This document shows, piece by piece, positions 5,711 through 58,400 of a stretch of DNA of 64,000 nt. The DNA comes from Marinilabiliaceae bacterium JC017. Lineage in GTDB: Bacteria > Bacteroidota > Bacteroidia > Bacteroidales > Marinilabiliaceae. The DNA is taken from the NCBI GenBank assembly GCA_004296775.1, contig RHGE01000010.1, positions 39,250 through 103,249 on the forward strand, given 5' to 3'. The position numbers were made by a program, and so were the translations under genes. Positions within the stretch are counted from its first letter, which is position 1; the number at the start of each line of letters is the position of its first letter. The notes under the pieces were generated by a model. It did no database searches. It was not told the DNA's origin and saw nothing but the letters and a program-made list of their open reading frames with translations.

Positions 5711-6336
5711 AAAGTCTGTTGTTATTGGTTCTGCTGGGAGGTTGTCTCCTGGCTGGCCATGCCCAATGTAGGAAGACAAGAACGATTGCTCTTACCCTTG
5801 ACGACGGTCCCGCCGGTGAACTGACAGAGTCTTTTCTGGAGCTGTTTGAGCACTATGATGTCAAGGTGACGTTTTTTCATATCGGTAAAAAGTCGATACA
5901 ACAAACAGATCTCTGCAAAGAGATCCTGGAGCGGGGACATGAGATTGGGAATCACAGTTGGTCGCATCAGCGATTAACAACTTTAGATACGGCTGATGCA
6001 CGGATGGAAATAGAGCGGTTTCAGCAATTTTTCAGAGATTCGCTGGCATACCGGCCGGTTTCGTTCCGGCCCCCTTTTCTTAAACACAACCCATACATTG
6101 ATGCGATTAGCCAGAAGAACGGGTTGACAATCATAACCGCGGATATTTATGCCCGTGATGCTAAAATGAATGTCGACCCCGAGGTAGTTGTGGAGAACCT
6201 GAGCAGGGAGATACCCGACGGGAGTATCATATTGTGCCATGAACGGCCCTATACCTTAAAAGCGTTGAAGGTGCTTTTGCCTGTGTGGAAGAAGAAAGGT
6301 TATCGGCTGGTAACCGTTAGTCAGATTATAAGATGA
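5698..6336 (+). CDS. Polysaccharide deacetylase (NodB homology, CE4-like). It overlaps the upstream sulfatase by 13 bp.
   Basis: Contains 'TLDDGP' and 'HSWSHQ' metal and catalytic motifs. A signal peptide is present. Confidence 0.8.
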   Translation: MRRIKSLLLLVLLGGCLLAGHAQCRKTRTIALTLDDGPAGELTESFLELFEHYDVKVTFFHIGKKSIQQTDLCKEILERGHEIGNHSWSHQRLTTLDTADARMEIERFQQFFRDSLAYRPVSFRPPFLKHNPYIDAISQKNGLTIITADIYARDAKMNVDPEVVVENLSREIPDGSIILCHERPYTLKALKVLLPVWKKKGYRLVTVSQIIR

Positions 6337-6499
6337 TTAACGGTTATTGGTTATATAATTATCCGTTGTCATTACAGGTTTGGTTTATAGATAACTGCGA
6401 ATGATTTGAAAATTAGTATAGCTAAATCCAAATCAATTTATCGGTTAAAATATAGAATTCCTATTGAAGTTGAATCCATGATTTTATAATCGGGGTTTC

Positions 6500-6712
6500 T
6501 ATTGTGTAATTACATTCCGACTTCGGGAAATTCCGTTAAGAAAATTGGGGCTTGAACCGTAAAGAAATCAGGTCTGTTTGAGCGGAGCGAGTTACCTGAT
6601 TTTAGGGGCAGGGCTCAATTTTTAGGGATTTAACGTTAGCGGCGGCATTTTTTGTTTACTTTTTTTTACTGTTGAAAAAAAGTAAAAGCCTGCGCGGCTT
6701 GAGCGCAAAGAG
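6500..6712 (+). ncRNA. Candidate structured non-coding element, copy 1. It has three hairpins, including a conserved 20-nt loop 'ctgtttgagcggagcgagtt'.
   Basis: Stem 6563-6571 pairs with 6594-6602 around the conserved loop. A hairpin spans 6655-6687 (tttactttttttt / aaaaaaagtaaa). A hairpin spans 6692-6708 (tgcgc ggcttga gcgca). A second copy at about 43150-43390 has compensatory changes in these stems. Confidence 0.4.
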
Positions 6713-7007
6713 AAATAAAAAAATAAGTTAGGATAATGTGTCTTTATTAAGGATTGAAAAACAATACTATATTTTAAGGTAATCTACATGATTACAACGG
6801 ACTAACGCAGATGAGATGCAACCATTAATAATTACAAATACCCAATAACTCATCGCATATGTCACACAAAAAGGCGCCAGGTAAGGCTCCGCCAACTTAA
6901 TACGGCCTTTGCAGAAAGTTATGCGTAACACCGGATAGCTCTCTTGTAAATTATCAGGTTATCAAATGGTGACAAATTCTCATAAACACTAATTTTATTA
7001 ATCTATT

Positions 7008-8450
7008 ATGGTAAAACTAAAAGTTATAACAGCCATCATCGTCATGCAATTGCTGGTTGTCAACTTGCATGCGGCCGGCAAAAGGGATAAGCGGCCCAAT
7101 ATTGTCTTTATCGAAGTGGATGATTTGAACCACGAATACCTCAGCTGTTTTGGCAGTAATGTGGTGCAAACGCCCCATGTGGATAAGCTGGCCCAGTCGG
7201 GAGTAAGGTTTGAAAATGCCGTGTGTCAGGGGATGATGTGCGGTCCATCGCGTAACTCTACCATGACCGGTCTTTATCCCCATAACCTGGGATTTTATAA
7301 TAACGGGGAAATGCGGTCTTTGCCCAAAGATGTGTGGACGTTTCCAAAGGGATTGCAGGCATCCGGCTATTACACCGCCTGGATTGGTAAATGCCACATC
7401 CGGCCATTTCTGGAGAATAAAGATAAAACGGAAGCCATGCGTTCACAGATGGGATTTGATTTTGCCCAGGTGACCGAAGGACGTGTGGTGTTAACCCGTA
7501 AGGCCAAAAAACCGCATGCGGCCGATAAGGATTGGTACCTGAGTTTCCTGAAGGAGAAAGGATGGTTGGAACAGTTCATTAATGAATACCCGGAGATCTC
7601 CACCTTGCCGGAAGAAGCCTATCTGGATGGTTTTTTCACAAAGAATGCCGAGGAATTTCTGAACGGATACCGGGAGAAGCATCCCTTCTTCCTGTGGCTG
7701 AACTACTCGGTGCCTCATGGTCCCTATGACGTGGCAAAGCCCTATCATGAACCATTTAACACCGCCGATATGCCGGGTACTACCATCCCCGATTTCGTAG
7801 CGCCCGAAGGATTGGTGAAGAAAACCAGGTTATCCACCAATGAGGAAAAACATAAAAAGGAGCAGGCCGGCCATTGTGCAGCCGTCTCATTCATGGATCG
7901 GCAGGTGGGGAAGGTAATTGAGGCCCTTAAACAGAACGGACAATTCGAGAATACCATCATTGTGTTCTTCTCCGACCAGGGCGTGATGTTGGGTGATCAT
8001 CAACGTAACCATAAAGGAACATTGTATCGTCAGATTACCAATCCGGCCCTGATTGTTTCTTATCCACCCCGGTTTAAAAGCAATAAGGTGGTAAAGGCGC
8101 CCGTGGAACTCATTGACCTGATACAAACCACCCTGGATGTGGCCAAAGCACCAAAAGCTGAGTTAACGCATTGTAAAACCAGTAATAGCTTAGTACCAAT
8201 ATTGACCGGAAAAACAAAGAGTGTACGTGAAGTAGCCTTCGGAGAAATTGATGGATATGTAATGGCCACCGATGGTCGTTACCGGCTGATTAAAGGAGAC
8301 GACGCTTCCCTGCTGTTTGATGAGGAGAAAGATCCCAAAAACCTGCATAATATTGCCGATAAGTATCCTGAAATAACCACCCGGCTGACCAAAAGCATTG
8401 ATGACTGGCTCAGGAAAACCGGCCCTGTATTACCGAAGAAATCTTTGTAG
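7008..8450 (+). CDS. Cys-type sulfatase.
   Basis: Contains 'IVFIEVDDLNHEYL...CGPSRNSTMTGLYPH' and 'FFSDQG'. A signal peptide is present. Confidence 0.9.
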   Translation: MVKLKVITAIIVMQLLVVNLHAAGKRDKRPNIVFIEVDDLNHEYLSCFGSNVVQTPHVDKLAQSGVRFENAVCQGMMCGPSRNSTMTGLYPHNLGFYNNGEMRSLPKDVWTFPKGLQASGYYTAWIGKCHIRPFLENKDKTEAMRSQMGFDFAQVTEGRVVLTRKAKKPHAADKDWYLSFLKEKGWLEQFINEYPEISTLPEEAYLDGFFTKNAEEFLNGYREKHPFFLWLNYSVPHGPYDVAKPYHEPFNTADMPGTTIPDFVAPEGLVKKTRLSTNEEKHKKEQAGHCAAVSFMDRQVGKVIEALKQNGQFENTIIVFFSDQGVMLGDHQRNHKGTLYRQITNPALIVSYPPRFKSNKVVKAPVELIDLIQTTLDVAKAPKAELTHCKTSNSLVPILTGKTKSVREVAFGEIDGYVMATDGRYRLIKGDDASLLFDEEKDPKNLHNIADKYPEITTRLTKSIDDWLRKTGPVLPKKSL

Positions 8451-24228: not shown

Positions 24229-27200
24229 ATGAGGAAAAATCTACTTTTGAGTATATGGTTACAAGTGTTGTTTATAACCAGCCTTTGGGCGCAAAGTTCG
24301 ACGGATAGACAATTTTATAAGGAGTATTGGCAATCCCGTCAATATATAGTACCTGCAACTTCGGTTATGAAAAGGTTAGAGACTGGTAGTTCGGCCGATG
24401 CTGTTATTTATGTAAAAACCAGTCAAGAGCTAGCCCGGGTTTTACCTACTCAGTTTGGGGTAAATACTCCCTTTCGAAATGGCAGTGACCAATTAGACCG
24501 GGCTGCATTATACGATCAGGCCGGGATGGGGTCGCTTCGTTATCCGGCCGGTAGCGGATCAAATAAATATTTTTGGGACGGGAAGGTTCCTGCCGATTTC
24601 AGAATTGAGTTGAATGGTATTGATGGTACAAAAAACAGTTATTTGAAGCCTGAAAGCTTTGTGCAATTTCTCCATTCCATAAACAGTGAAGCAACCATTG
24701 TGGTCAATTATTTCTATGCTCGTTATGGAGCAACCACTGAAGGAACCCGGGAAGCCCGGGTTAAACAGGCGGCTGATTATGCTGCCGGTTTTGTGCGCAA
24801 GATGAATGTGGAGTTGGGGGCTAACATTAAAAACTGGGAAATTGGTAACGAATGCTATGGAAAATGGGAAGAAGGCTATGATGTGAATGGTAGCATAGTA
24901 ACCGGAAAAGAGTACGGGGAGGATTTTCGGGTGATGGCTGAAGCGATGAAAGCTGTTGATCCAACGATAAAAGTAGGGGTGGTAGTAACTAGAGAGGATG
25001 ATGAGTGGAACAGTAGCGTGTTACCGGAGGTGAAAGATCATGCCGATTTTTTGGTGGTACACAACTATTTTACCTCTGTGAAAGATGCTACGCCTCAAAA
25101 TTTATTGAATAGTGTGGAGCAGGTAGAGGCGGTTCATACGACGCTATTAGATTGTGTGGAGCGGTATACCGGAAAGCCACGTGATTATTTTCCGGTGGCC
25201 ATGACGGAGTTTAATACCCGGGGTTCTTACAATTGTACTATGCTTAACGGCCTTTTTGTGGCTCAGGTGCTGGGGGAAGTGATTAAAACCGGTTATGGGA
25301 TGGTAAATCTGTGGGTGTCGGAATGGAACTGGAATGATGCCGATCAGGAAAGTAAAGGTTTTTTGGCCCGTAATGATCCCGATCAGGCTGATTATACCCC
25401 TCGACAGAGCTACATGCCCTATTATTTTTATGACAAGTGTTTTGGTGATCGGATGGTAGAGGCATCTTCCAATCATTCTGATGTGAAGGTATATGCCTCT
25501 ACCTTTGAAAGTGGTGAAGTGGGATTAGTGGTGATCAATACTTCTGATACCGAAAAAAGTGTTCAGTTGGATTTAGCTTCCGCTGGTGTTGGTGTCGATT
25601 ACAATAAAGCCTATTGGTATGAGTTTTATGCCAACTCTATCACACCGGGAGATAAACGGTTTTATATCAACGGGCAAACAGGTAGTACCGCTGGAGGCGG
25701 ACCTGAGCATTATGCCGGGATTGCACCTTATGAATCAACTGTTACCCGTAACACGCTTTTTAATGCGAAAAAGTACAGTGTGAATTTTATTGTGCTTGAA
25801 TCGGGTGTGAGCGTAGCCGATCCGGTTATTGAAAGCGTTGGGGTGCAGGTTTCTATTTCTACACCCACCCAAGGGGCGGCTATCTACTACTCCACAGATG
25901 GCAGTGAACCGGATGCTTCGTCTGCTTTATATACCGGAGCCTTCACTGCACCTCCGGGGGCGGTGATAAAAGCCATTGCTGTAAAGAATGATGTAAGCAG
26001 CCAGGTTGTTTCGTTGAATATTCAGTACAATGTGCTTTTTATCGCTGTGGATGACCTGAAGCCGGTCTTGAATTGTTATGGTGAGTCACAAATTGTATCG
26101 CCCAGTATTGATCGTCTGGCTGATCAGGGAATGGTCTTTACCAAAGCTTATTGTCAATGGTCGGTTTGCGGGCCATCGCGAGCCAGTGTCATGACTGGTC
26201 AAACACCTGATGGAACAGGTATCAGGAATCTGAAATCACTTTTACGGGTGGAGAATCCCCAGTTGGTTACGTTACCAGAATATTTTAAGAATAACGGTTA
26301 TGTGACTGCAGCTTGCGGTAAGGTCTTTGATCCCCGCAATGTGGATGAAGGGCATGACAGTCATTCATGGGCTATTCCCTATACTGATCCGGGCGATTAT
26401 GATTTTCCGGCGGAATATGGTGATTTTGTAAAGGGGAATACGTACCGGGTGTCTCCCAATGCAGCGACAGAATGTGGCCCTGTTGGCGTAGATGATGATG
26501 GTTACCTGGATGGGCAAATTTGTCAGGATGCCTTGGGTAAACTGGAAGCATTGGCCGGGAGAGGGGATCAGCCTTTCTTTTTGGCTGTCGGATTCAAGAA
26601 ACCGCATATTCCATTTGTTGCGCCGGAGAAATATTGGGATTTATACGATCGCAATTCCATTGAGTTGGCTGCCTATCAGAAAATGGCCGTTGGCAGTCCT
26701 GAGTATGCTTATCATACGCCTGAGCCAATGGGGTATACCGATATCCCTGATCCCTGGACCTATGATGATGTGGAGAAGGGAGACGATATATTGTCTCCTG
26801 ATGATCAGCGCCGGCTGATTCATGGGTATTATGCATGTGTGTCGTATATAGATGCCCAGATAGGTAAGTTGCTCGATAAGCTGGAGGAGAAAGGAATGAC
26901 CGGTAATACCGTTGTTATGTTGTATGGTGATCATGGTTATCACCTGGGCGATCATAACCAGTGGGGGAAGCATACCAATTTTGAGAATGCCTTGCGGGCC
27001 CCTTTGATTATATCTGCGCCGGGAGGTGTTACCGGGAAAAATAGTACTCCTGTTGAGTTTACTGATATTTATCCTACCATGTGTGAGTTAGCGGGTTTGA
27101 ATGTACCTTATTCTACCCTTCAGGGAGCAAGCCTGGCGCCCTTGTTAAGAGGCGAGGAAATGACCGGTAAAACATGTGCTGTTTCAGAATACCGGGCAGG

Positions 27201-28218
27201 TGGTGGATCGGGTTACTCCTTTCGGACAGCACGCTACCGGCTTTCATTGTGGTTTAAAAGCTCAAAAGACCGGCCCGATGTGATCGATTGGGATGAAAGC
27301 CGTATCAAGGACATGGAGTTGTACGATTATGAGAATGATCCTTTTGAAACCACTAACCTGGCTTATCTGCCGCAATATGTACAGGTGGTTACTGACCTGA
27401 AAACGATGGCCGCCGGGTGGTGGGGAAAACAGTACCAGTTTTTTGCCAATCCTGCTCAACAAGAATTGGCGTTGCCATTCATTGAACATTTCGAGAATTA
27501 TTCTTTGGGTGCTTCCATTACTGGCGATAAATGGTTATCGGAAAATTCGATGTGGGAGAGGGTTTGGCAGAGTAATAATGCCAATGCCTTTGAAGGTACG
27601 GTGGTGGATGATTCAGGAGCTGATGGGACGCAGGCGCTCAAAATCAGCATTACCAGTCGAAGCAGAGCGGATGGAGGTGATGTGATTAAATTGCAAACTG
27701 TTGATTTAACCAGATTTGAAAAGAAACAATATGTTGTTTCGTATCTGGCACGGACCAATGCTGCGGGCATAGGTAAAGCTAAGGTGGGGGTCTCTGATAA
27801 TAATGAGGATTGGCACGAACTGGGGGCGACCTATCAGGAGTATTTTGATACGGTAACATTATCTAATGGAAAACTCTATCTGCATTTCAATAATACCGAT
27901 CTGGTTTCTGGTACGAATTATAAAGTATGGATTGATAATCTGAAAATATCTGCTGCTCCTCCTACCAGTTCGGATGTGGGGATTATTGAAATGCCGCAGA
28001 ATGATTTACTGGTTTACCCGAATCCGGTTAAAAGCAGGCTCTATGTAAAGGGTAGCGATCAAATTGATGCGATTTATTTATATGACCTGAGTGGTGTGTG
28101 TCTTATAAAGAAGATGAATATCAATTATATCGATTTACAGGAAATAAATCGGGGGCTGTATCTTTTGGTCGCAGAGGTGAATGGAAACAGGATAGTAAAA
28201 AGAATCGTAAAGGAGTGA
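24229..28218 (+). CDS. Multidomain T9SS-secreted enzyme. It combines a TIM-barrel glycoside hydrolase (clan GH-A-like), a chitobiase/Big-like domain, a Cys-type sulfatase, a CBM-like beta-sandwich and a T9SS CTD.
   Basis: Signal peptide. The GH-A-like catalytic-acid motif is 'NWEIGNECYG'. The sulfatase domain starts at about aa 600 with 'VLFIAVDDLKPVLNCYG...CGPSRASVMTGQ' and 'LYGDHGYHLGDH'. The C-terminus is 'LLVYPNPVKSRLYVKG...LYLLVAEVNGNRIVKRIV'. Confidence 0.85.
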   Translation: MRKNLLLSIWLQVLFITSLWAQSSTDRQFYKEYWQSRQYIVPATSVMKRLETGSSADAVIYVKTSQELARVLPTQFGVNTPFRNGSDQLDRAALYDQAGMGSLRYPAGSGSNKYFWDGKVPADFRIELNGIDGTKNSYLKPESFVQFLHSINSEATIVVNYFYARYGATTEGTREARVKQAADYAAGFVRKMNVELGANIKNWEIGNECYGKWEEGYDVNGSIVTGKEYGEDFRVMAEAMKAVDPTIKVGVVVTREDDEWNSSVLPEVKDHADFLVVHNYFTSVKDATPQNLLNSVEQVEAVHTTLLDCVERYTGKPRDYFPVAMTEFNTRGSYNCTMLNGLFVAQVLGEVIKTGYGMVNLWVSEWNWNDADQESKGFLARNDPDQADYTPRQSYMPYYFYDKCFGDRMVEASSNHSDVKVYASTFESGEVGLVVINTSDTEKSVQLDLASAGVGVDYNKAYWYEFYANSITPGDKRFYINGQTGSTAGGGPEHYAGIAPYESTVTRNTLFNAKKYSVNFIVLESGVSVADPVIESVGVQVSISTPTQGAAIYYSTDGSEPDASSALYTGAFTAPPGAVIKAIAVKNDVSSQVVSLNIQYNVLFIAVDDLKPVLNCYGESQIVSPSIDRLADQGMVFTKAYCQWSVCGPSRASVMTGQTPDGTGIRNLKSLLRVENPQLVTLPEYFKNNGYVTAACGKVFDPRNVDEGHDSHSWAIPYTDPGDYDFPAEYGDFVKGNTYRVSPNAATECGPVGVDDDGYLDGQICQDALGKLEALAGRGDQPFFLAVGFKKPHIPFVAPEKYWDLYDRNSIELAAYQKMAVGSPEYAYHTPEPMGYTDIPDPWTYDDVEKGDDILSPDDQRRLIHGYYACVSYIDAQIGKLLDKLEEKGMTGNTVVMLYGDHGYHLGDHNQWGKHTNFENALRAPLIISAPGGVTGKNSTPVEFTDIYPTMCELAGLNVPYSTLQGASLAPLLRGEEMTGKTCAVSEYRAGGGSGYSFRTARYRLSLWFKSSKDRPDVIDWDESRIKDMELYDYENDPFETTNLAYLPQYVQVVTDLKTMAAGWWGKQYQFFANPAQQELALPFIEHFENYSLGASITGDKWLSENSMWERVWQSNNANAFEGTVVDDSGADGTQALKISITSRSRADGGDVIKLQTVDLTRFEKKQYVVSYLARTNAAGIGKAKVGVSDNNEDWHELGATYQEYFDTVTLSNGKLYLHFNNTDLVSGTNYKVWIDNLKISAAPPTSSDVGIIEMPQNDLLVYPNPVKSRLYVKGSDQIDAIYLYDLSGVCLIKKMNINYIDLQEINRGLYLLVAEVNGNRIVKRIVKE

Positions 28219-28278: not shown

Positions 28279-29967
28279 ATGAGATATTCAAACAAAAAGG
28301 GAATCGCTAGTGTTTGTGGTTTTTCCCTGTTAATGGCAGGGAGTTCGTTGTTTGCCCAAAAACATCAGTCAAAGGAGCAATATAATATACTTTGGCTTAG
28401 TTGTGAAGACATCGGACCGGTTATGGGAACCTATGGCGCCAAGGGAATTGAGACGCCCAATATTGACCGGCTGGCAAGGGAAGGTATACAGTATAACCAT
28501 GCCTATTCCACCGTGGGAGTATGTGCTCCAAGCCGGTCTTCTATTATCACAGGGATGTATCCTGTTAGCATTGGTAGTCAGCATATGCGAACGGGCAACC
28601 ATTGGGGTTTCAGGCCTCCGGAAAAGGAAACGTACCTGAGTTATAAAAAGATAAAAGATAAAACGGGACGGAATGTGCCTGAGTATTCGGTGGTGCCGCC
28701 GTCCTATGTGAAATGTTTCCCGGAATATCTGCGGGCTGCCGGGTATTATTGCACTAATAATGCCAAATGTGATTATCAGTTTAGTTGCCCCATAACAGCT
28801 TGGGATGAGGTGGGAAATGATGCTTCTTATAAAAACAGGTCCGACGATCAGCCTTTTTTTGCTGTCTTTAACAATGGAATAACGCATGAGTCGCAGATAT
28901 GGAAGCGGAAGCAGAAACCTATGCTGGTTGATACGGCTAAGTTGGTTATTCCCCACTATTACCCCGATATACCTGTTGTGCGGCAAGATGTAGGTCGGAA
29001 ATATTCCAACATTCAGGAACTTGACCATGATATTGGCGTGTGGCTGAAAAAACTGGAAGATGAAAATCTGTTGGATAAAACTATTATTTTCTTCTGGAGT
29101 GATCATGGAGGCCCACTGTTGAGACAAAAAAGAGCTGTTGGCAATTCAGGGCTCCATGTGCCTTTGATTGTCCGGTTTCCGGATAAGCGAATGGCTGGTA
29201 CGGTGGTTGATGACATTGTGTCATTAATGGATTTAGGACCAACGGTTCTCTCGTTGGCTGATGTAGAGCCGCCTGAGTACATGCATGGTAAAGCTTTTCT
29301 GGGAGAATATAAAGTGGAAAAGGGACATCAGTATGCCTTTGGTAGTGCTGATCGATTTGATGAGCATACCGATATGAGCCGATCAGTGATTGATGGCCGT
29401 TATGTATATATCCGGAATTTCATGCCTCAGTTACCCTATGTGTATCGGTTGTTTTATCGCGAACAAATGGATATGACGCGAACCATGATTCAGATGAACA
29501 ACCGGGGCGAACTGAAAGGGGATGCTGCCTACCTGTTTATGGATTCACGCCCCGTGGAAGAGTTGTATGATTTGCAGTCTGATCCCGATGAAGTGCATAA
29601 CCTGGCTAATATCCCTGAATGCCGGGAAAAACTGGTGGAACTAAGAAAAGCATTATCACAGTGGCAGCTGGAAGTGGGTGATATGGGCTTCATACCGGAG
29701 CATGATATGGTGAACCTGATGTGGCCCGGTTTTATCCAGCCTCAAACCCAAAAGGTAGTTTTTCAACCATCAGGAAAAGGAACGGTGGTAATGAGCAGTG
29801 CTACACAGGGAGCGTCCATTGCTTATCAGACAGGTAGTGAAATAGGAACCGATCATTGGCATCTGTATGTAAAACCCTTTAAGTTAAAGCGAAGTGAGAA
29901 AATTGTGGCCCGGGCGGTTCGGATTGGTTATAAAACTTCAGAGCAAACCGAATATGAAAAGGATTAG
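28279..29967 (+). CDS. Cys-type sulfatase with a C-terminal extension.
   Basis: Contains 'ILWLSCEDIGPVMG...CAPSRSSIITGMYP' and 'FWSDHGG'. A signal peptide is present. Confidence 0.9.
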   Translation: MRYSNKKGIASVCGFSLLMAGSSLFAQKHQSKEQYNILWLSCEDIGPVMGTYGAKGIETPNIDRLAREGIQYNHAYSTVGVCAPSRSSIITGMYPVSIGSQHMRTGNHWGFRPPEKETYLSYKKIKDKTGRNVPEYSVVPPSYVKCFPEYLRAAGYYCTNNAKCDYQFSCPITAWDEVGNDASYKNRSDDQPFFAVFNNGITHESQIWKRKQKPMLVDTAKLVIPHYYPDIPVVRQDVGRKYSNIQELDHDIGVWLKKLEDENLLDKTIIFFWSDHGGPLLRQKRAVGNSGLHVPLIVRFPDKRMAGTVVDDIVSLMDLGPTVLSLADVEPPEYMHGKAFLGEYKVEKGHQYAFGSADRFDEHTDMSRSVIDGRYVYIRNFMPQLPYVYRLFYREQMDMTRTMIQMNNRGELKGDAAYLFMDSRPVEELYDLQSDPDEVHNLANIPECREKLVELRKALSQWQLEVGDMGFIPEHDMVNLMWPGFIQPQTQKVVFQPSGKGTVVMSSATQGASIAYQTGSEIGTDHWHLYVKPFKLKRSEKIVARAVRIGYKTSEQTEYEKD

Positions 29968-35699: not shown

Positions 35700-35735
35700 A
35701 AAAGAGACTGTCGCTGGGCAGTCTCTTTTTTTTAG
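35700..35735 (+). terminator. Rho-independent terminator.
   Basis: agagactg...cagtctct stem followed by a T8 run. Confidence 0.7.
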
Positions 35736-36709: not shown

Positions 36710-36928
36710 TTGAAAATGAAAAAGTTTATTAGCATCGAGGCTTTTAAAGCCAACAAATTGCGTGAGAAGCAAATGAGTGCCTTAAAAGGTGGCGGGCCAA
36801 CTACTGGTCATCCAGGAACAGCAGGAGCCCCTCCGGGACCCACTGATGATGATTGGAACGGACCAACACCTCCTACAACAGGTGGCGGGCATGCGGGTGC
36901 ACCTCCTGCACCGGTAGATCCTAGATAA
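36710..36928 (+). CDS. RiPP precursor peptide candidate (GG-leader, Bacteroidetes type).
   Basis: 72 aa. The leader is 'MKMKKFISIEAFKANKLREKQMSALKGG'. The core is Pro/Gly/Thr-rich, 'GPTTGHPGTAGAPPGPTDDDWNGPTPPTTGGGHAGAPPAPVDPR'. It lies 490 bp upstream of an rSAM/SPASM gene on the same strand. Confidence 0.6.
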   Translation: MKMKKFISIEAFKANKLREKQMSALKGGGPTTGHPGTAGAPPGPTDDDWNGPTPPTTGGGHAGAPPAPVDPR

Positions 36929-36939
36929 GATCTTTGTCT

Positions 36940-36975
36940 AAGAGGGGGAAAAGGTTTTTCACCTTTTCTCCTTCC
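36940..36975 (+). terminator. Imperfect hairpin after the precursor gene, a possible attenuator or partial terminator.
   Basis: gggggaaaaggt ttttc accttttctcc. The downstream T-run is weak. Confidence 0.35.
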
Positions 36976-37415
36976 AAAATAGTTCTGTCATTTTATAATA
37001 GAGTGCAGGTTAATTGAGTGTTAAAGAATTGGGATGAATAGATTGGTTGGTTTTTGACATCAGCCCTTAGGTGTAAATAAGTATCAATTTTATATCATAT
37101 ACCAAGCTTTAACATGTTCCTCCCTTAGAGTGCTAAGATTTTCACAGAAACCGCAATAGAGAATCGTAAACACGCGTTTATCCTTTGTTTTATTTGGCGA
37201 GATAAAATTGCGTCTTCAGTGATGAATATGCAATTCTGGTTATTATGACGTTAATGTTGGTTAACACCCCTCGCAGAACTAAAATCTAACGAACTATTGT
37301 GATTATTACAGCTACTGAAAAAATGACAGGTTGCTATTGTCATTAGATTACAATCGAAAAATTGTTTTTTATTCAACCCTTCACTTTTTTAAGGAGTGAA
37401 GGGTTGCTAATATAT

Positions 37416-38516
37416 ATGAAAATGTCTCAGAATATACCTTTTACTTTCCCGGGAATGATTGTCTGGGAGCTTACTGAGCAATGCAACTTTAAGTGTTTGC
37501 ATTGCTATAATTTAGGTCAGAATTCAGGTCGAATTGAGTTTGATAAAGAGAAGGCGCTAGATATATGTGATCAGCTAATTGATTTAAAGGTCCGCTATGT
37601 TCTTTTGTCTGGCGGAGAGGTACTGATGTGTGATTTTTGGGAGGAGATAGCCAGGAAGTTGGAGGATGGCGGCGTTCGTACCGGCATAATTTCAAATGGT
37701 TGGTTGGTTGATAAAGCCATGATCGATCGAATCAAAGCGACCGGGGTGGATTGGGTCTGCTTTAGTTTAGATGGCGCTGAAGCGGTACATGATAAGGTGC
37801 GTCAGAAAGGGTCGTTTCAACGCATTATGAATGCCTTGGATCTTTTGGCTGATGAGGATGTCTACACCAGTATAAGTACGGCCATGAATAAATTGAATAT
37901 TCAGGATATGGAGCAGATGTACCAGGTTTTGTGTGCGAAAAAAGCCAATGCCTGGCAATTGCAGCTGGCTGTTCCCGAAGGCGCATCAAAGATCAATGAG
38001 AATGAGTTGATTTTGGATCCGTCCCAGATTGATACCATCATTGATTTTGTTTATGATCGATTTCGTGAATCGCCTGTAAGGCTATACCTGGGTGATTGTG
38101 TCGGATACTATAATGTGAAAGAGATCGAAGTAAGATCATCAGGCAAAGCGGAAGAGATGGGGTTGATGAATTTCGTGGATGGTTGTCAGGCTGGTATCGG
38201 TACAGCCGGCATTAAAGCAAATGGTGACTTTACCGGTTGTATCTCTTTAAGTCATCCGTTTTATGTAGCCGGCAGTGTGTATGAACGCACTTTGCTTGAT
38301 ATGTGGAATGACCCTAAGAGTTTTGCCTGGAACCGGTATTTTGACAAGGATCAGTTAAAAGGGGATTGCAAGGAGTGTGTGTATGGGGAGTATTGTTTGT
38401 CAGGGTGTCCCGGATTTAAATACGATGATGATTTCAATGTCGTGGAAAACAAACATTGTTCCTATAATTACGCCATTAAGCAAGAAAGATTGAAAAATGC
38501 CGGGATTTCATCGTAA
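37416..38516 (+). CDS. Radical SAM enzyme with a C-terminal SPASM domain, a candidate peptide maturase. The ORF opens at 37362; the Met at 37416 is the more likely start.
   Basis: 'ELTEQCNFKCLHCYN' is a CX3CX2C motif. The C-terminal Cys clusters are 'DGCQAGIGTAGIKANGDFTGC' and 'CKECVYGEYCLSGCPG', which are SPASM-type. A hairpin at 37372-37407 lies upstream of the Met at 37416. Confidence 0.85.
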   Translation: MKMSQNIPFTFPGMIVWELTEQCNFKCLHCYNLGQNSGRIEFDKEKALDICDQLIDLKVRYVLLSGGEVLMCDFWEEIARKLEDGGVRTGIISNGWLVDKAMIDRIKATGVDWVCFSLDGAEAVHDKVRQKGSFQRIMNALDLLADEDVYTSISTAMNKLNIQDMEQMYQVLCAKKANAWQLQLAVPEGASKINENELILDPSQIDTIIDFVYDRFRESPVRLYLGDCVGYYNVKEIEVRSSGKAEEMGLMNFVDGCQAGIGTAGIKANGDFTGCISLSHPFYVAGSVYERTLLDMWNDPKSFAWNRYFDKDQLKGDCKECVYGEYCLSGCPGFKYDDDFNVVENKHCSYNYAIKQERLKNAGISS

Positions 38517-38946
38517 TTGGTGAAAAGCCATAAGTCTGTGTTATTGTTTGCCGAGAATAAAGAATAGGGATAAAACTTTATAAGGAAAAATGGATGGAGA
38601 TTTAAGGGAATGTAACCCGGAAAATCTTCATCTTGTTTTTTGATTGTGTCCCATTAGATGGTGGAAGTTAAAAGAAAACTCATAACTGTTACTGGTAGGT
38701 TGTTAGTGTAGAGAATCTAATTGGTTGAGTGAATATGTTTAGGATTTGTGAGTGAGTGCAAAGTTTGTTTCATTACACATCATTGCATCAAAGGTATTTG
38801 AGAATGTATTTCCCGGGTTGTTAAGGTGATGGTTTAAATAATCACAAGGCATTTCGCTTATTCGTAGGGGGGTGAAAATCCGGTGCGATCCTGTTTTGGG
38901 AAGTGGAAAAGAGCGTCAGGTAAAAGGGGCTTCCTGAAAAAGGGTT

Positions 38947-39500
38947 CTGCACATCTGCCTGTTATCTGCATGTGTTGTTTCAAGAGCTTTGTACGTCTGT
39001 ACGATCGTTGTACTAACTGTGTCAAGGACTCTGTTCACCTGCCTGGTGTCTGCACTAACTGTGTCAAGGACTTTGCACGTCTGTATGGTGTCTGCACTAG
39101 TTGTGTCAGGGCTTTTCTTGTTAGTATGGCGTCTGCACTAACTGTATCTAGGGCTTCGTTCACCTGCATGGTGTCTGCACTGACTGTGTCAAGGACTTTG
39201 CACGTCTGTATGGAGTCTGCACTAGTTGTGTCAGGACTTTGCATGCCTGTCTGGTCGTTGTACTAATTGTGTCAAGGACTTTGCACGTCTGCATTGGCAT
39301 TTTCTTCACTGTGTTAAGGCTTTGTTCGTCTGCGAGACAATTTTTCTACACTAAAAAATGACTTTGCATGTCTGCATAGGCACTTTTTGGTGTGTGAAAA
39401 TAGGTTTGTTCACTTGCCTGGTTGATTTTTCAACAGGATCAAGGGCCTTGATTGGCTGCAAAATGATTTTTCAGCTTAAAAAATGACTTTGTTTACCGTG
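38947..39500. repeat. Degenerate tandem array of about 13 units of 41-43 bp. The core is (g)tctgcactaactgtgtcaaggactttgcacgtctg.
   Basis: Directly visible. Unit length varies between 41, 42 and 43 bp, so the reading frame is not conserved. Confidence 0.75.
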
Positions 39501-45757: not shown

Positions 45758-46438
45758 CTATTTTTCATTTTTCCTGATCGCCTTCTGTAGCGGACAATCA
45801 TCAGCTATGGGCTTTCCTTGCCGGTATTTGGCCAAGAGGGCCACGGAACGTTCGGCCAGCATTCTTCTCACAGCTCTTCTTTCCCCTTTAATCCTGGCGA
45901 TATGCATGTTGTCATAAGCCGTTGTGTTGTGGCGCATCCAGGCAATGACGGCCCTGGCAGCCCTTTCCTCTATGGGAATCATGGATGTACGCGCAACAGT
46001 GCCGCTTCCAACGGGTATGGCGTGGGTGGTAACGGCCCTGGCAATGATCTTTTCTGTCGGTTTGTGCAACGGGTGAAAATTTAGAAAGTTTTCCACCTCT
46101 TTGCAGAAGGCTGCCTCATACTCCAGCTGCTTTTTTTGCCGCCGTTGAAGATCATACTGCCTCTTCTTTTCGTATGCTTCGGTTGAACGAATGGCTTGCA
46201 CATCTCTTTGGGCTTGTTCTATGGTAGAGGCAGGCGCCCAGATGCCCTTCGATATGGTACGTCGCCCTTTCTTTACCTGCACACGCCAAAAGGATCCCTT
46301 AGAAGTAACCTTTCGGGTGACACCGGCATCCCCGGCCGGCAAAAAAGCCCAGTCATTTGGCGGAACCAGACGCTCTCCTTTTTCTCCCAATAAACTTCCT
46401 CCCGGTCCCGGATTTACAATTCGTATATCACCCTTCAT
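45758..46438 (-). CDS. Hypothetical basic protein, possibly DUF2293-like.
   Basis: A 226-aa Arg/Lys-rich ORF with no TM helices. Confidence 0.45.
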   Translation of the reverse strand: MKGDIRIVNPGPGGSLLGEKGERLVPPNDWAFLPAGDAGVTRKVTSKGSFWRVQVKKGRRTISKGIWAPASTIEQAQRDVQAIRSTEAYEKKRQYDLQRRQKKQLEYEAAFCKEVENFLNFHPLHKPTEKIIARAVTTHAIPVGSGTVARTSMIPIEERAARAVIAWMRHNTTAYDNMHIARIKGERRAVRRMLAERSVALLAKYRQGKPIADDCPLQKAIRKNEK

Positions 46439-46519
46439 ATATAGCAGTTTTTTAGGGTTGCAAAAGTAGTGTTTTCAGGGATATTGTAGGTCAGTAACAC
46501 AATACCATTTGAAATGTAC

Positions 46520-47614
46520 CTATTCAAAGTACCTCTGTCTGGCCTTCTCCAGTAATTCTCCAATCCGTTTTCTCAATGAGGGTGGGCTTAATACTTCAAT
46601 GCCCGGGCCAAATCCCAGAATAAGGCGTTCCAATTCGTAATTGGGCACCACATTAATGGAAAGGATGGTGCCCTGGGGTGATTCGGAAATTAATTGCTGA
46701 GATGCGTGAAGGGGTTTTGTTAATACATAGGGGGCGTTGAAATGATCTACCCAGAAGGTTATAGTACGTGGCATTAAGCCAGGATTTACTGTAACGCCTA
46801 TCACATTTTTGTAATAGTCGTCGGGATGAAAAGTTGGATCATCATGAAAAGGCATGTTATCTACCTGTGTGAATGAGAGCATTCGGTCCAATGCCAGGTT
46901 CATAATCTCTTTTGCTTTGTTTTTATGGCCTGTTATAAACCAGCGATTGTTGTATTCTTTTAACAGGTATGGGTGGAAGTAGATTGGGTGGCTGCTTTTT
47001 GCCTTGAAGGAGCGGTATTCTATTTTAAGTACCTGTTTTTTTAAAATAGCCTGATAGAGGTCATTCAGGTGTTCCAGACCTTTTAGTTTTTCGTTTTTAT
47101 CAATATGGATGATGGGGCGTGACCGGGTTTGTTCTGTGTAGATTTTGTTTTCTAACTTTTGAATTAAGCTGGTCATCTCCCTAAAATGGCTGAATCCCTG
47201 GAATTGCTTCAGAATATCTACGGCATCGTTCAGTTTATTCAGGTCTTGTTCTGACAGAGGCAGTTGTGTGATCGAATAGTCAGGATCTTCATATTCATAA
47301 TACTTCCTCTGCTTTACTATTATGGGTGCATTATAGCCCAGTTTATCGCTGCGCATGGTTTGGATATCCAATTGAATGGTACGACGGCTAACTCCTTTGT
47401 CAATTCCCTCATATTCAAATAAGGCCTCAGAACAGGCTTCCGTCAGGTCATCCAGTGTCCATTTTCGGTAATGATTTCTAAGGCATTTATCAATGGTATT
47501 GTAGCGAATGAGGGCATTTCTGTTGACAGGCATAAAATTTTTTTGGGAAAAATAGAAAAAAGATCTTACTGCGCAAAAAGATTGCGCAGTAGTGGTGAAT
47601 CTTTGCAATGTCAA
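46520..47614 (-). CDS. HTH (YafY/DeoR-like) plus WYL-domain transcriptional regulator. The start is likely the Met at 47539.
   Basis: The N-terminal 'VSRRTIQLDIQTMRS' is the HTH recognition segment. 'HPYLLKEYNNRWFITGH...NLALDRM' matches the WYL-domain core (YL..Y.gRWY / FRLDRI-like). Confidence 0.7.
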   Translation of the reverse strand: MTLQRFTTTAQSFCAVRSFFYFSQKNFMPVNRNALIRYNTIDKCLRNHYRKWTLDDLTEACSEALFEYEGIDKGVSRRTIQLDIQTMRSDKLGYNAPIIVKQRKYYEYEDPDYSITQLPLSEQDLNKLNDAVDILKQFQGFSHFREMTSLIQKLENKIYTEQTRSRPIIHIDKNEKLKGLEHLNDLYQAILKKQVLKIEYRSFKAKSSHPIYFHPYLLKEYNNRWFITGHKNKAKEIMNLALDRMLSFTQVDNMPFHDDPTFHPDDYYKNVIGVTVNPGLMPRTITFWVDHFNAPYVLTKPLHASQQLISESPQGTILSINVVPNYELERLILGFGPGIEVLSPPSLRKRIGELLEKARQRYFE

Positions 47615-52441: not shown

Positions 52442-55400
52442 TTGATTTTTAGTTTTTTAAATCAAAATAAGATGAGGAAGGTTTACTTATTATTAATTTT
52501 TGCGTTTCTGAATATTCTATATCTGAATGCGCAGGAAATTTTCAATGAAGGATTTGAAGATTCTTTCAGCTCAAGCGGATGGCTCCACGAAAAGGATGCT
52601 GGTAATTCATATGGCTGGCGAATATTAAAGAGTAGTACGCATTGTATTAACGCTCCACATGCAGGCGAAAAGTTCGTTGAATTTGAAAGTTATTTTACAA
52701 CAGCGGGTAAAGGTGCAATGTTGATTTCTCCAACTGTTAAGGTACCGGATAAGTTATTCAGGCTTGACTTTTATTCGGTTGTAAGTGGTCGTAGTAATGG
52801 ATTACATGTGGATTTGTCAATGGACGGGGGTGCGACATGGACAGAAGATGTTTTGTCTATTGAAAAAACTGCAAAAGAGACTCAGTGGACCAGGCACAAT
52901 GTTGATATTTCCGAATATTTACCTTGTGAAAACTTAAAAATCAGGTTTCGTGCTATCTCTTCCTGTGGTTCTGGGAAGTGTAACATTGCTCTGGATGATG
53001 TGAGGATTTATAAGCCGCAGGATATGGTTTACCAATCAGGTACTACGGTTCAAAATAATACATCTGTTGTAGCCATTGGAAGCCAGGATGCTGAAGTAAT
53101 AGGTGTGAAAATTAATTGTAAGGGAGCATTGTTACCTTTATCTGTTAATGGATTAACGTTTGATCTTAGTTCATCCACGCAGATTTCTGATATCACAAAA
53201 GCAAAGGTTTATTATACTGGTAGTGCTTCTGTTTTTAAAACAGATCACCTTTACAGCGAGGTAAGTAATATTGCAACAGGTATAGCATTGAGTGGAAATC
53301 AGGAATTGGTTGAGGGAGATAACTATTTCTGGTTGGCTTTTGATATTTCTGCCGATGCTGCGGATGGTAATGTGATTGATGCCGGATGTAATAAAATAAA
53401 AATAGGCTCTGACGAAAAGGTACCTGGTATGGTTAATCCGGATGGTAACCGGGTTCTTAAAAATATGGTGTTGATGAGTAAAGGCACTAAAAACATCAAG
53501 GTTAATAAAACAGTTGTTTTTTATGATGATGGTGGACCATTAGGAAATTATTCAAAGCAATTTGATGGTGTTGTCATCTTTGAACCAATTGATGACAGTC
53601 ATAAGGTTCAAATCGATTTTAGTAAATTTAAAACTGGTTCCCTACATACACTTACCATTTATGATGGTAACAGCACGGCAGCTGAAAAAATTGATGTGTA
53701 TAGTGGATCTACTAGTCTTGGTTTGATAAAATCTACTTCAGATGATGGTTGTCTGACTGTTAAATTTCATGTTGGCTATTCTGAAGGGCAGGAAGGTTGG
53801 GAGGCTGAAGTTTCCAACTACCAGCCTCAATCGATGACTTATGTTTCCAGTAATGCTTTTCAGGATAATTTAGATGCGCTTTCGCCGGGAGATGTAAAAA
53901 ATGAGCTTATTGGTTGTTGTGTCAGTACACAAGGTCTGCTTTCTCCGCTTACAGCAAAAAGTCTTTTATTAAGCTTTTCAGGTACAACCAACTTGGCTGA
54001 TATTGAAAAAGTAACACTTTTTTACGGGAAGGAAACCAAAAATTTTAATTCTTCTGGGAATATCAAGGTTGCCGAAATCACGGATTTACAGAACGAACAA
54101 TTAACCATTGATTTCTCGCGTCCCTTGGTGACAGGTAAAAACTACTTCTGGGTGGCTGTTGATATTGCTGCATCAGCTGGGCATACCAATATTGTGGATG
54201 CCCGAATTACAAAGGTGAATATCTCACAGAGTGATTATATGCCCGAAAAAAGTAACCCTGAAGGTAGCCGACAAATCCTTCGTATCTATCAGATGGAAAA
54301 GGATAAAGAAATAATTACTTCAGGAGGATTGTTTTATGATAATGGTGGAGCCTCAGGTAATTATTCGGGCAGTTTTGATGGTTGTATGATATTTAAGCCC
54401 TTAAATCCGAAAAATAAAATACGGATGAGTTTCAGCATGCTTGACATTAAAGAAGGTTGGAATGCATCAGAGGATTATTTAATTATTTATGATGGACCTG
54501 ATAAGAATGCACCTGAATTGGGTAAGTTTTATGGACAGACTTTGCCGCCTGTTCTAACTTCAACAGCTTCGGATGGTAGTTTGTGTATTTATTTTAAAGC
54601 AAATAGTTGGTCTAATGCCAAAGGGTGGGAAGCTAAGATTAGCGAATATATTCCCAAGGATATGGAATTTATTGGTTCTGAAATAATTCCTTTTTCGGAC
54701 GAAGGTGTATGTAAAGGAGCAATGGATCAACCTATTATTGGTTTAAAACTGAATGTTGAAGGTTCTTTGAAACCATTGAGTTGTCAGCAAATTAAAATTG
54801 ATACCAAAGGCACTCAAGGCATTAATAAGATTAAGCTTTATTCCACCGGGAAAAAGGATCTTTTCAATAATGATAATCTGGTTGGAGAAAAAATAGTAGA
54901 AGGAGAAAGTGTTACGTTTGATGTTGATCAAACCTTTCTTGAAGGCATTAATTATTATTGGGTGGCTTACGATGTTTCCCCTGATGCCAATGAAGGAGAT
55001 CGTCTTAAGGCGGATTGCAGCGAATTGGTTATTTCCGGAATAAAATATAGTAACACTGATGCGCAGCTAGCCGGGCGAGAAGTAATAAATTACGTTAATA
55101 TGCCGGTGACAACCAATAATGTGGTGGTGGTTAATGATGAAATATTATTCCTTGATGATGGTGGAAAAGAGAATCCACATGGTAAGGATGTGAAGGGTTC
55201 TATTGTGTTCAAGCCTGCTGACCCCTCAAAAAAAGTAAAAGTTGAATTCAGTGAATTTGAATTGCAAAATTATGGTGTAGATTTTTATGTTTTTAATGGG
55301 CAGGAAACCAACGGTAGTAATACCATTGCTAATTTAAAAGGCAGTGATATACCTGATCCGGTAAAGTCCACTTCAGCGGATGGGGCTTTAAGATTTTATT

Positions 55401-58400
55401 TTAAATCAGCTTCAATGTTTACTCAAAAACCGGGGTGGGTCAGTAGAGTATACTGTTATGAGCCGCGTTCGTTATTTTTAGAGAGAGCAGTGGCCATACA
55501 AAAGGAGCGGAAATTTCTAAGGCCAGAAGCAAAGGATCAGGTTATTTTGGGAGTAGAGTTAAATATTGCCGGGGAGCAAGATGAGCTTAATGTTCAGAAA
55601 TTGACTTTTTCCACCGAGGGATGTACCAAATCAACAGATATTTCTTCTGCCAAATTATATTATACAAGCAATGATGAAGAATTTTCTACCGATGAAAAAA
55701 TAGGTGAAGTGAAGGCTCCTTTTGGGGATTTTACTTTTGAACTTGATAAAACGATTAAGGCGGAAGGTACTTATCATTTCTGGTTATGCTTCGATATTGC
55801 AGTGGATGCTAAGCCAGGGGATATTGTGGATGCAATATTAAAATCAATTACTGTTGATGGTCAAACAGTAACCGTTGAAAAAGGAAATCCTATTGGAAAG
55901 CGTGTTATTCGTAAGGCTCTTAATGGTGCTTATTCCATTAGTAACGATTTAAGTGTTGATGCCGACTTTATTTCATTTTCCGAAGCTGCAGAAGCGCTTA
56001 ATGTATTAGGTATTACCGGAGATGTAACTTTTAATGTTGCTGACGGTGAATATGAAGATGCTTTTGTATTGAATGAAGTAACCGGTTCGTCTGTGGACAA
56101 CCAGATCGTATTTAAATCGGTCTCAGGGAATCGAAATAAGGTGGTTGTAAAATATTTCGGGAAACCGAAAGCGCCTTCTCTGATGATTTTGGATGGTGCC
56201 GATTATGTGACATTTGAAGGAATGACATTTAAAAATACCGGTGTAACTTATGGGCGTATTGTGGAGATTTATAATGAAGCGAACTGTAATAAGTTTATTA
56301 ATAATGTATTTGAAGGAGTAGAGGCTTCAGATTACGACTCTGATCACTATAAAACCATTATATATGGAGGCGGTTATGACTGCAAATCACTTGATAATAA
56401 TAATGAATTCAGAGGAAACCACTTTAAGGAGGGGAATATTGCCGTTTATTTAAAAGGGGTTAATGCAATTTCAGAATTTGAAACAGGCTTGATTTTAGCG
56501 AATAATACTTTTGAAAATCAATACTCCAAGTCTGTTTATCTGAATTGTCAGGATCATTTGGTCATTGAAGGCAATAGCTTTATTCAATCAGATAATAAAG
56601 GAGATTTTAAAGCCATTGATGTTTTTCAAAGTCACAAAGATGTGAAGGTGGTGGCCAATAAGTTTAATCTTAATTGTGGCTCTAATAAATGTACAGGGAT
56701 TTTGCTGCGAAATTTCAACTCGGTGGACGAATCGAAAACAATCGTTTTTAACAATCTTGTATATGTTAAGTCTGGGAATTTTAGCTATGGCGTTCATCTT
56801 AGTGATATCGACTTTATTGATCTGCTTCATAATACTGTGAAAATAGATGGGAGTGGGACTTCTTCCAAAGGACTTTATATTGAAAAGGGGCGAAGTTCTG
56901 TTATTGATCATTTAAGAATCATCAACAATATCTTCTCTATCTATACGGGAGGTTATGCCATTTGGAGTAAGGCAGAAGGTACCAATACGATTATTTCAAA
57001 CAACGACTACTATTCCGATAATACGGCTGAGCATTTTATCAAATACGGCGCTATTGAGGTGAATTCACTGGAGGCTTTTCAAACTGCATTCCCGGCTGAT
57101 GCCAATTCAATTAGTGTGGATCCTGGGTTTAATTCTGAGACGGACTTACACATTTCCGGTACAAATCTTCGTTTCGGACGTCCGGTGGAAAATGTTATGG
57201 AAGACTTCGATGGTGAGCTGCGGAATGCTGCTACGCCTTATATCGGAGCCGATGAAATACCCGATGCGACCTTTGAAGGAGGATATCCTAAATTTGAGGA
57301 GGTCACCGCTGTCAGTGCTGATATGTTGGTGAAATCCAATGAAACTGGTGAGGTCTATTTCCTTCTGTTGCCCAAGGGAGCTGAGTTACCTTCCAAGGCT
57401 CAGATAAAAGCCGGTAAGGATGCCAATGACCAGGAACCTTTGAAAAAAGGAAACATAGCCATCGAAGCGAATAGGGAAGGAAAAACCAGTATTACAGGTT
57501 TAACCGAAAAGACTGCGTACGACGTGGTATTGGTGGAGGAGAAAGCCAATGGAGGCTTTTCAGGCATCCTGCGTCTTTGTTTAGCTACGCTGGATATTAC
57601 TGCGCCTGAGTTTATCAATGAAACGCCTGAGTTGGTTCAGGTATCTGATCAGGATGCTTTATTTAAGGCAGAAATTAATGAACCGGGATTTATTTACTAT
57701 GCACTTTGTGATAACAGTGTTGAAACATTGAGTGTGGAGTATGTAATGAATGGAAATAATTCCATCGCGTTTGGTAAAATCAATGCTGATAAAGAGAATG
57801 AAATTCCATGTAACCAATTAAATGCCGCAACTAATTACAATCTTTTTGTTGTTGCACAGGATGATCAGCCCAATGCGAACACACAGAGCAATGTTGCTAA
57901 AATCAGTTTTAAAACTTTAAACAGCATTGGGGTTAGTAACTTTGTGGCACAGGCAGTGCAAGGAAGCCGAATTAATCTGGCCTGGGAACAACCGTCGCAG
58001 GCGCAAAATGTGTTGGTGGTTTACTCCACCGATAACAATTTTGGCCGTCCTCAAACCGGAGAAAGTTACCAGGCAGGCGATCTTTTGGGTGATGGCGGAA
58101 CCGTGCTCTACTCCGGAAAAGGCAAGTCTTTCAATCACACCGGTATTGAATCCGGGCACACCTATTATTATCGGATTTATACATATAGTAAGGATAGAGA
58201 GTATTCGCAATATGTAGAGGATTATGCTGTATTGAAATACGATAAATGGACCGTACTGGTTTATCTGGATGGGGATAATAATTTGGAAGGCAATGCCATT
58301 AAGGATATTAACGAGATGGAGAGTGTGGATTTGCCCGAAAACGTAAATGTTATCGTTCAAATGGACAGGTCACCTTCTGAAGATTATTCAAATGGCAACT

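Follow-up and report, generated by a model that had tools for sequence, protein, structure and literature searches.

A putative two-gene radical-SAM/SPASM cassette for a cysteine-free, proline- and glycine-rich ribosomal peptide in Marinilabiliaceae bacterium JC017

Introduction

No other source currently yields as much new peptide chemistry as the enzymes that join a radical S-adenosylmethionine (rSAM) domain to a SPASM domain, and uncharacterised clades with distinctive substrates tend to yield new bond types. Here we describe a locus in a 64,000-nucleotide stretch of DNA from Marinilabiliaceae bacterium JC017 (contig RHGE01000010.1, positions 39,250 to 103,249; the whole stretch is called the window below), in which a gene for a short peptide with a leader ending in a double glycine (GG) is followed on the same strand by a gene for an rSAM/SPASM enzyme. 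The two genes most probably form a minimal cassette for a peptide that is ribosomally synthesised and modified after translation (RiPP), consisting of a conserved precursor and its rSAM/SPASM enzyme, and we propose that modification takes place at a short unit in the peptide core. On present evidence the cassette is an rSAM/SPASM RiPP system with an uncharacterised enzyme clade and substrate motif. A locus of this kind had been proposed in an earlier interpretation of the same DNA, to which we refer as the sequence-only reading.

Among the known systems closest to this locus are those that make spliceotides. PlpX, the founding tyramine splicease, belongs to IPR026482 (PMC11002830); the documented splice site is X-Y-G (PMC11414181, PMC9811515), and splicing consists in the loss of a tyramine equivalent (-135.06 Da) with formation of an alpha-ketoamide (PMC11626197). 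Binary spliceases do without a RiPP recognition element (RRE) and bind the leader helix directly (PMC11414181). Like the spliceotide systems PlpX/PlpY and RhaX, the present locus pairs an rSAM/SPASM enzyme with a leader-bearing ribosomal peptide, and like the binary spliceases it has no RRE; unlike them, its core contains neither Tyr nor X-Y-G, and its leader is of the short GG type rather than Nif11 or NHLP. Triceptide substrates, for their part, include His-/Trp-containing motifs (HAS, YSK) in which the bond goes to C-beta of the third residue (PMC12912966). The triceptide enzymes ChlB and MicB are SPASM rSAMs that also modify Cys-free cores, and ChlB is among the closest folds to the window enzyme, but identity to ChlB is 18% and the unit of the present family has Gly rather than an aromatic residue at its centre. 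Canonical triceptide chemistry was rejected as unlikely for the window core: the window triplets H-P-G, H-A-G and W-N-G end in Gly, which has no C-beta.

With the GG-Bacteroidales system (TIGR04149 peptides and TIGR04148 enzymes) the pair shares its occurrence in Bacteroidota, a leader ending in GG and an adjacent rSAM/SPASM gene, and the sequence-only reading had pointed to that family. The assignment was not upheld by profile comparison. The peptide scores 20.3 bits against TIGR04149, under the cut-off of 25 (residues 1-27 match the N-terminal 29 model positions), the same model matches only three of nine relatives at E <= 0.1, and TIGR04148 is absent from the best 25 of the 76 families that match the enzyme, the weakest of those listed scoring 55.8 bits. 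The best-scoring modelled family for the window enzyme (174 bits) and for most of its relatives (166-251 bits) is TIGR04103, which we take to correspond to IPR026482. Its cut-off of 725 is not reached, and it nearly ties with TIGR03913, the top match for the related enzyme P0007, and with AhbD. The cassette is in no curated family. No published description of the clade to which the enzyme belongs, of Pro-rich GG-leader rSAM substrates or of splicing at a non-Tyr residue was found; Scott et al. 2022 (Chem 8:2659), which lay outside the comparison, may already type this clade or the group next to it.

The precursor gene and its enzyme

The sequence-only reading had described a 72-aa open reading frame (ORF) with a leader ending in LKGG. 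The ORF (36710-36928) and the LKGG ending stand, whereas the length probably does not: ATG 36716 is the likelier start, and the product is then MKKFISIEAFKANKLREKQMSALKGG (leader) followed by GPTTGHPGTAGAPPGPTDDDWNGPTPPTTGGGHAGAPPAPVDPR (core), 70 residues in all. The same 70-aa precursor is annotated by NCBI as a hypothetical protein (P0126) of Marinilabiliaceae bacterium JC017. The core is as had been described, with 27% Pro and 23% Gly (50% together), no Cys, a single Trp and one DDD triplet. Its two halves are imperfect copies of 22 residues in which AGAPPxPxD follows a P-T-T-G-(G-G)-H unit; at the DNA level the internal duplication is weak (about 55% identity).

The aligned precursor leaders have the consensus MKKFVxI..EL.K.E...VKGG. 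A profile of the leader, run against all six frames of the window, has the precursor as its sole match (E 1.8e-14), and no second precursor was found by this search in the window or in the spacer between the two genes. With a profile built from nine related precursors, a search of 5.8 billion proteins recovered the family at E-values between 1e-8 and 1e-18; when the profile was extended to 13 precursors, 25 representatives came up at E <= 1e-3 in a set of 1.84 billion. Judged by these searches the small ORF is more than a chance frame, and its conservation resembles that of a RiPP precursor, in that the leader is kept while the core is hypervariable yet similar in composition and Cys-free among relatives. 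Conservation of the small ORF had been put forward as a check on the proposal, and the outcome is in its favour.

The enzyme gene is a mechanical ORF at 37362-38516 with a likely ATG start at 37416, and its product is 100% identical to an NCBI entry named 'radical SAM protein' (P0001). Pfam recognises the Radical_SAM (PF04055, E 4e-25) and SPASM (PF13186, E 5e-8) domains, and the CX3CX2C motif and C-terminal Cys clusters noticed in the sequence-only reading are made of cysteines invariant in 58 homologs (Table 1). A further Cys, C228 (38097-38099), is clade-specific; for this residue and for C51, invariance is confined to the 11 closest relatives. Since the CX3CX2C motif begins at residue 23, the N-terminus is too short for an RRE domain. 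A confident AlphaFold 2 model of the enzyme (pLDDT 92) has a partial TIM barrel and a SPASM region; its closest solved folds, at 16-19% identity, are PqqE, SkfB, SuiB, the cyclophane synthase ChlB and the anaerobic sulfatase-maturating enzyme (anSME), and a sequence search of the PDB gave weak generic matches only (BlsE, SkfB, PqqE). The modelled fold is that of a generic SPASM protein, with no signal specific for a given chemistry.

Such a fold could also belong to a housekeeping enzyme, either an anSME serving two upstream sulfatases or an AhbD/NirJ, next to which the small ORF would be fortuitous. Two Cys-type sulfatase genes do lie 7-13 kb upstream, anSME is a near structural neighbour of similar size that likewise lacks an RRE and whose two auxiliary clusters are fully ligated, and among the NCBIfam matches AhbD ranks second. 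The scores, however, are far under the cut-offs (79.8 bits against 349 for TIGR03942 of anSME; for AhbD/NirJ, 151 against 500 for TIGR04545 and 116 against 515 for TIGR04051), unrelated genes on both strands lie between the sulfatases and the enzyme gene, and there are no heme-pathway neighbours. The leader of the small ORF is conserved, with E-values down to 1e-18, and the flanks of the relatives hold GG-leader peptides, not sulfatases or heme genes; the conserved partner is thus the peptide and not a sulfatase. A housekeeping role, named in the sequence-only reading as an outcome that would speak against the proposal, is extremely improbable, and both anSME and AhbD/NirJ were rejected.

Table 1. 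Coordinates and characteristics of the cassette, of other window features and of related loci (coordinates of window features are those of the window; coordinates of other loci are those of the respective locus)
Feature	Position	Strand	Remarks
Precursor peptide gene	36716..36928	+	70 aa from ATG, stop 36928; mechanical ORF begins at TTG 36710
Leader, residues 1-26	36716..36793	+	MKKFISIEAFKANKLREKQMSALKGG; ends LKGG (double glycine); aligned with 12 other precursor leaders
Core, residues 27-70	36794..36925	+	44 residues; no Cys, no Tyr
Hairpin 1	36942..36974	+	13 nt past precursor stop; 14-bp stem, 5-nt loop, no U-tract; -21.3 kcal/mol, z -3.24
Hairpin 2	37374..37406	+	perfect 15-bp stem; ends 9 nt 5' of rSAM ATG; encloses AAGGAG
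Radical-SAM/SPASM maturase (putative), 366 aa	37416..38516	+	no N-terminal RRE, no C-terminal TPR
CX3CX2C radical-SAM cluster motif (C23, C27, C30)	37482..37505	+	invariant, 58 homologs
SPASM region C257-x12-G-x4-C275, C318-x2-C321-x5-C327-x3-C331, C348	38184..38459	+	seven Cys invariant, 58 homologs; motif for two auxiliary 4Fe-4S clusters
Sulfatase gene, first	24229..28218	+	1329 aa, T9SS C-terminal sorting domain
Sulfatase gene, second	28279..29967	+	Cys-type CAPSRS motif
PPi-dependent PEPCK, 1158 aa	32197..35673	+	E = 0 to PDB 8e1u and 6k31
42-bp tandem repeats	38941..39390		about 9-10 imperfect copies, consensus TGTGTCAAGGACTTTGCACGCCTGTATGGTGTCTGCACTAAC, 71-83% matches
DUF2293 protein	45758..47614	-	span includes the adjoining WYL/WCX-domain regulator
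2828-aa protein	52442..60928	+	MAM, BNR-associated, CUB, clostripain (C11) peptidase, DUF4465 and T9SS sorting domains
Short-clade locus L010			rSAM 68% identical to window; core YAGPQGPNTGYPQGPGGLVGPVPPPPPGPDPIYPPGAGGLKGPA, 44 residues, Gly/Pro-rich, 44 bp upstream of rSAM
Short-clade locus L007			rSAM 54% identical; three precursors
Short-clade loci L005/L006			rSAM 52% identical; core GFIYPPLSGIIAMDLPE
Short-clade locus L032			rSAM 52% identical; precursor C-terminal fragment only
Short-clade locus L030			rSAM 50% identical; one precursor
Short-clade locus L031			rSAM 49% identical; one precursor
Short-clade locus L008			rSAM 43% identical; one family-type precursor, with PCAT, HlyD and OEP
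Short-clade locus L034			three precursors
Imm33-family gene, L005	6463..6795		opposite strand to rSAM
Imm33-family gene, L032	1415..1741		opposite strand to rSAM
TPR-fused loci L001; L002	5240..7530; 5261..7530		precursor motifs LYGIPP, EYGIPP, KYGIIP, KYGVTP
TPR-fused locus L036	3501..7601		precursor motifs KYGV, LYGIQPID; PCAT adjacent
TPR-fused locus L039	444..2944		precursor motifs LHYGIIPPDPP, LLYGILPP
TPR-fused locus L040	3680..5475		precursor motifs LYGIMP, LYGIRPDEP
L038	2833..4547		348-aa homolog (35% identity) preceded by two paralogous ORFs

Conservation of the pair in related loci

A search of 5.8 billion proteins retrieved about a dozen enzyme clusters without extra domains (P0002-P0010, P0012) at 41-68% identity to the window enzyme. 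These short enzymes come mostly from Bacteroidota and form a monophyletic clade with 100% bootstrap support in a neighbour-joining (NJ) tree. At all nine related loci with readable upstream DNA (L005, L006, L007, L008, L010, L030, L031, L032 in part, and L034) one to three precursors with the same type of leader lie next to the enzyme gene, their cores being Cys-free and Pro-rich (mean Pro 24%), and the adjacency that the sequence-only reading would predict was therefore seen at every homologous locus that included enough upstream DNA. Both the enzyme clade and the substrate motif are distinct, and the substrates are Cys-free. The occurrence of several hypervariable precursors with one enzyme (L007, L034), and of a peptidase-containing ATP-binding cassette transporter (PCAT) with HlyD and OEP in L008, is typical of RiPP loci. 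In several relatives an Imm33-family immunity-protein gene, absent from the window, is found just downstream of the enzyme gene on the opposite strand (Table 1).

The layout of two bare genes recurs in L010, the closest relative, whose neighbourhood is unrelated to that of the window, and the pair therefore behaves as a self-contained cassette. In the window the two genes are separated by a spacer of 487 bp, close to the gap of about 490 bp given in the sequence-only reading, and the hairpin reported there is present as a 14-bp stem just past the precursor (hairpin 1 in Table 1). It is a candidate attenuator or partial terminator, which a consensus terminator scan missed. A second hairpin, not reported before, lies directly before the enzyme gene (-20.8 kcal/mol, z -4.96; none of 200 shuffled sequences folds as well) and may regulate how the enzyme is translated, or its transcript processed, in relation to the precursor. 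Scans for sigma-70 and terminator consensus sequences gave counts at or below shuffle expectation, an Rfam scan of 35600-40200 gave nothing above noise, and the exact Bacteroidetes TAnnTTTG element is absent upstream of both the precursor and the rSAM gene.

No PCAT-like ORF, leader peptidase or exporter is present in the 64-kb window, where every ORF of at least 600 aa was assigned to a sulfatase, a phosphoenolpyruvate carboxykinase (PEPCK), a GH31 protein, an amylase or a C11 peptidase secreted by the type IX secretion system (T9SS). Because there is no C39 peptidase/ABC transporter in the window, leader removal and export must come in trans. One could instead see in this absence the sign of a decaying or orphaned cassette, a remnant that has lost its processing and export genes, makes no mature product and has an expanded spacer; the spacer, with its two strong hairpins, is indeed the longest among the relatives (others 44 to 407 bp), and the window has a single precursor as against up to three elsewhere. 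Both ORFs are nevertheless intact with all catalytic cysteines kept, and the recurrence of the two-gene layout in L010 suggests that the pair is a functional unit with protease and exporter supplied in trans, such that decay seems improbable to us.

The core unit and the TPR-fused relatives

Across the family the cores share a unit P-x-[T/S/A]-G-Φ, in which Φ is aromatic or aliphatic, and which is not centred on Trp. In the short clade it takes the forms P-P-L-[T/S]-G-[IV]-I-A-x-D or T-[AT]-G-[MI]-I-[VA]-P-I-D-P. In the MAFFT alignment PTPPTTGGGHAGAPPAPVD of the window core coincides with the relatives' unit PPL[T/S]G[IV]IAxD, and the two units of the window would then be P28-T-T-G31-H32-P-G and P-P53-T-T-G-G-G58-H59-A-G, each followed by A-G-A-P-P-x-P-x-D. 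The window His stands where Tyr is found in L010 (T-G-Y-P), L031 (T-G-Y-A-P) and L008 (T-G-Y-L-P).

The next-nearest homologs are about 510 aa long, with a C-terminal tetratricopeptide repeat (TPR) extension, and are 39-41% identical to the window enzyme; in the NJ tree they are paraphyletic around the short clade. Their sources are Anaerobacterium chartisolvens, Acetivibrio sp. and metagenomes, and some have an adjacent C39 ABC transporter. At five of five loci their precursors combine a GG leader, which is Bacteroidota-like in L039 and L040 and reads ..ELTDEELMEMTGG in the Firmicutes loci, with a core that has two to five x-Y-G motifs. The dipeptide YG is thus found in five of five cores of the TPR group as against none of 15 in the short clade. 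The units of both groups have in common the Gly, the hydrophobic residues after it and a P..D-P tail, whereas Tyr before the Gly is restricted to the TPR group. From their alignment, the position before the Gly, taken by Tyr in the TPR group and by T, S or A in the short clade, looks homologous between the two. With their x-Y-G-[IV]-x-P repeats, the TPR-fused loci are probably spliceotide-type systems. An echo of the split between YG and non-YG precursors is seen in L038, where a 348-aa homolog from a large group of 343-361-aa proteins is preceded by two paralogous ORFs of 84-86 aa that read VLKYGYMP and MMLYAVITP at the same position.

These relationships raise the possibility that the window enzyme is itself of splicease type and acts at a non-Tyr residue before the invariant Gly (Thr30-Gly31, Ala36-Gly37, etc.). 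TIGR04103 tops the modelled families for it and for most relatives, and the x-Y-G precursors next to the TPR-fused enzymes agree with those of the short clade in leader type and in downstream context (L/H/K-Y-G-[IV]-x-P-P-D-P), with a seemingly homologous site at position -1. The direct binding of the leader helix by RRE-less binary spliceases (PMC11414181) would also be in keeping with this. Against it are the absence of YG from all short-clade cores and of Tyr from the window core, the score of 174 bits where TIGR04103 asks for 725, with other families close behind, the lack of a precedent in the literature compared here, and the putative status of the TPR-fused enzymes as spliceases. We consider a splicease-type activity unlikely.

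Some points weigh against the reading of the pair as a RiPP cassette modified at this unit. Because the definition of the unit is post hoc and some of the cores are close paralogs, the figure of 13 short-clade cores out of 15 with [S/T/A]-G-[hydrophobic or aromatic], as against 1.9 expected from shuffled cores, overstates independence and is indicative only. The window core is an outlier with almost no aliphatic residues after the conserved Gly, for which reason the assignment of its motif rests on the alignment of low-complexity Gly/Pro sequence. The long spacer with its two strong hairpins could mean that the genes are not co-transcribed, neither the window pair nor L010 has a peptidase or exporter nearby, and the cassette is known here from its genes.

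Possible modifications of the core

Under the cassette reading, the 70-aa peptide would be made with its helical double-glycine leader, whose conservation is observed, and the leader would dock directly on the stand-alone, RRE-less enzyme, by analogy with binary spliceases. Reductive cleavage of SAM would then yield a 5'-deoxyadenosyl radical that takes a hydrogen atom from the core, likely at the P-x-[T/S/A]-G-Φ unit, and two auxiliary clusters would handle the electron. Cys is absent from the window core and from the 15 short-clade cores analysed, and is found in a more distant precursor, P0141. As the cores of the whole clade have no Cys, the product cannot be a sactipeptide or ranthipeptide thioether, and these were rejected; the argument for a non-thioether chemistry made in the sequence-only reading therefore holds.

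Among the outcomes that are left we place first, tentatively, a Cys-independent intramolecular C-C or C-O/N cross-link at the unit, with a change of -2 Da per event, because SPASM RiPP enzymes most often form cross-links when the core is Cys-free and because His, Trp and Asp are available. A Trp- or Asp-based cross-link, of the kind suggested in the sequence-only reading, may be one of several chemistries.

Second, and rather unlikely, comes epimerisation of L- to D-residues at or beside the residue before the invariant Gly, which would bring no change in mass and could give a protease-resistant Pro-rich peptide. YydG/EpeE and PoyD are epimerases that turn L- into D-residues in Cys-free cores, with tolerance for many side chains and no requirement for a partner residue. 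In the present family many different residues precede the invariant Gly (T, S, A, P, L, V or I, with Y in relatives), which fits a C-alpha chemistry indifferent to the side chain, and no conserved pair of potential cross-link partners is evident. Most family cores have beta-branched aliphatic runs (G-I-I-A, G-V-L-V-P) resembling those of known epimerase substrates, and the clade-invariant C51 and C228 could donate a hydrogen atom. On the other hand, the structural resemblance to EpeE is distant (TMq about 0.54, rank 36 in Foldseek), and no epimerase family model is among the best matches of the enzyme. One TPR-fused relative (L039) has Asp in place of C228, C51 is modelled in helix alpha-1 without an obvious orientation towards the active site, and aliphatic residues are few in the window core.

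A Tyr-independent backbone rearrangement akin to tyramine splicing ranks third and, as said above, is unlikely; an outcome of some other kind is given the same weight as epimerisation. It is possible, if doubtful, that the short Bacteroidota clade is a neofunctionalised offshoot of YG-type, splicease-like enzymes that acts on a homologous, Tyr-free site and carries out a modification undescribed on ribosomal peptides. If this were true, the modification could be, for example, excision or rearrangement of the backbone without Tyr, or a cross-link involving Gly, Pro or His in a polyproline-like scaffold, and the window product would be a 44-residue Gly/Pro-rich peptide with two such sites.

The clade is rare, and its Cys-free, Pro-rich substrates have a short conserved unit. 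Set beside its neighbours with YG precursors, it offers a natural experiment on the co-evolution of substrate motif and radical chemistry. As the cassette has only two genes, it is directly testable by co-expression and constitutes a good lead for genome mining. Were the product a protease-resistant peptide of polyproline type with an electrophilic or cross-linked unit, it could serve as a protease-inhibitor or signalling scaffold.

Genomic neighbourhood

The neighbours of the enzyme gene in the window encode PEPCK, GH31 and an amylase. The 1158-aa protein that the sequence-only reading had taken for an orphan flanking the locus is a pyrophosphate (PPi)-dependent PEPCK, identified by its PDB matches (Table 1) and without a Pfam or NCBIfam match; it is a housekeeping enzyme outside the cluster. 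The MATE exporter named as the other flank is likewise unlinked, lying 5 kb away on the opposite strand, beyond the PEPCK gene. No anSME was identified in the window for the two sulfatases, whose maturase is not the rSAM enzyme studied here.

The non-coding gap of 1.7 kb between the rSAM gene and GH31 holds an array of 42-bp tandem repeats, which has no match in Rfam and explains the repetitive 'ORFs' listed there. Downstream of the amylase gene lies the gene for the DUF2293 protein with its adjoining regulator, and further on is that for the multidomain 2828-aa protein (Table 1).

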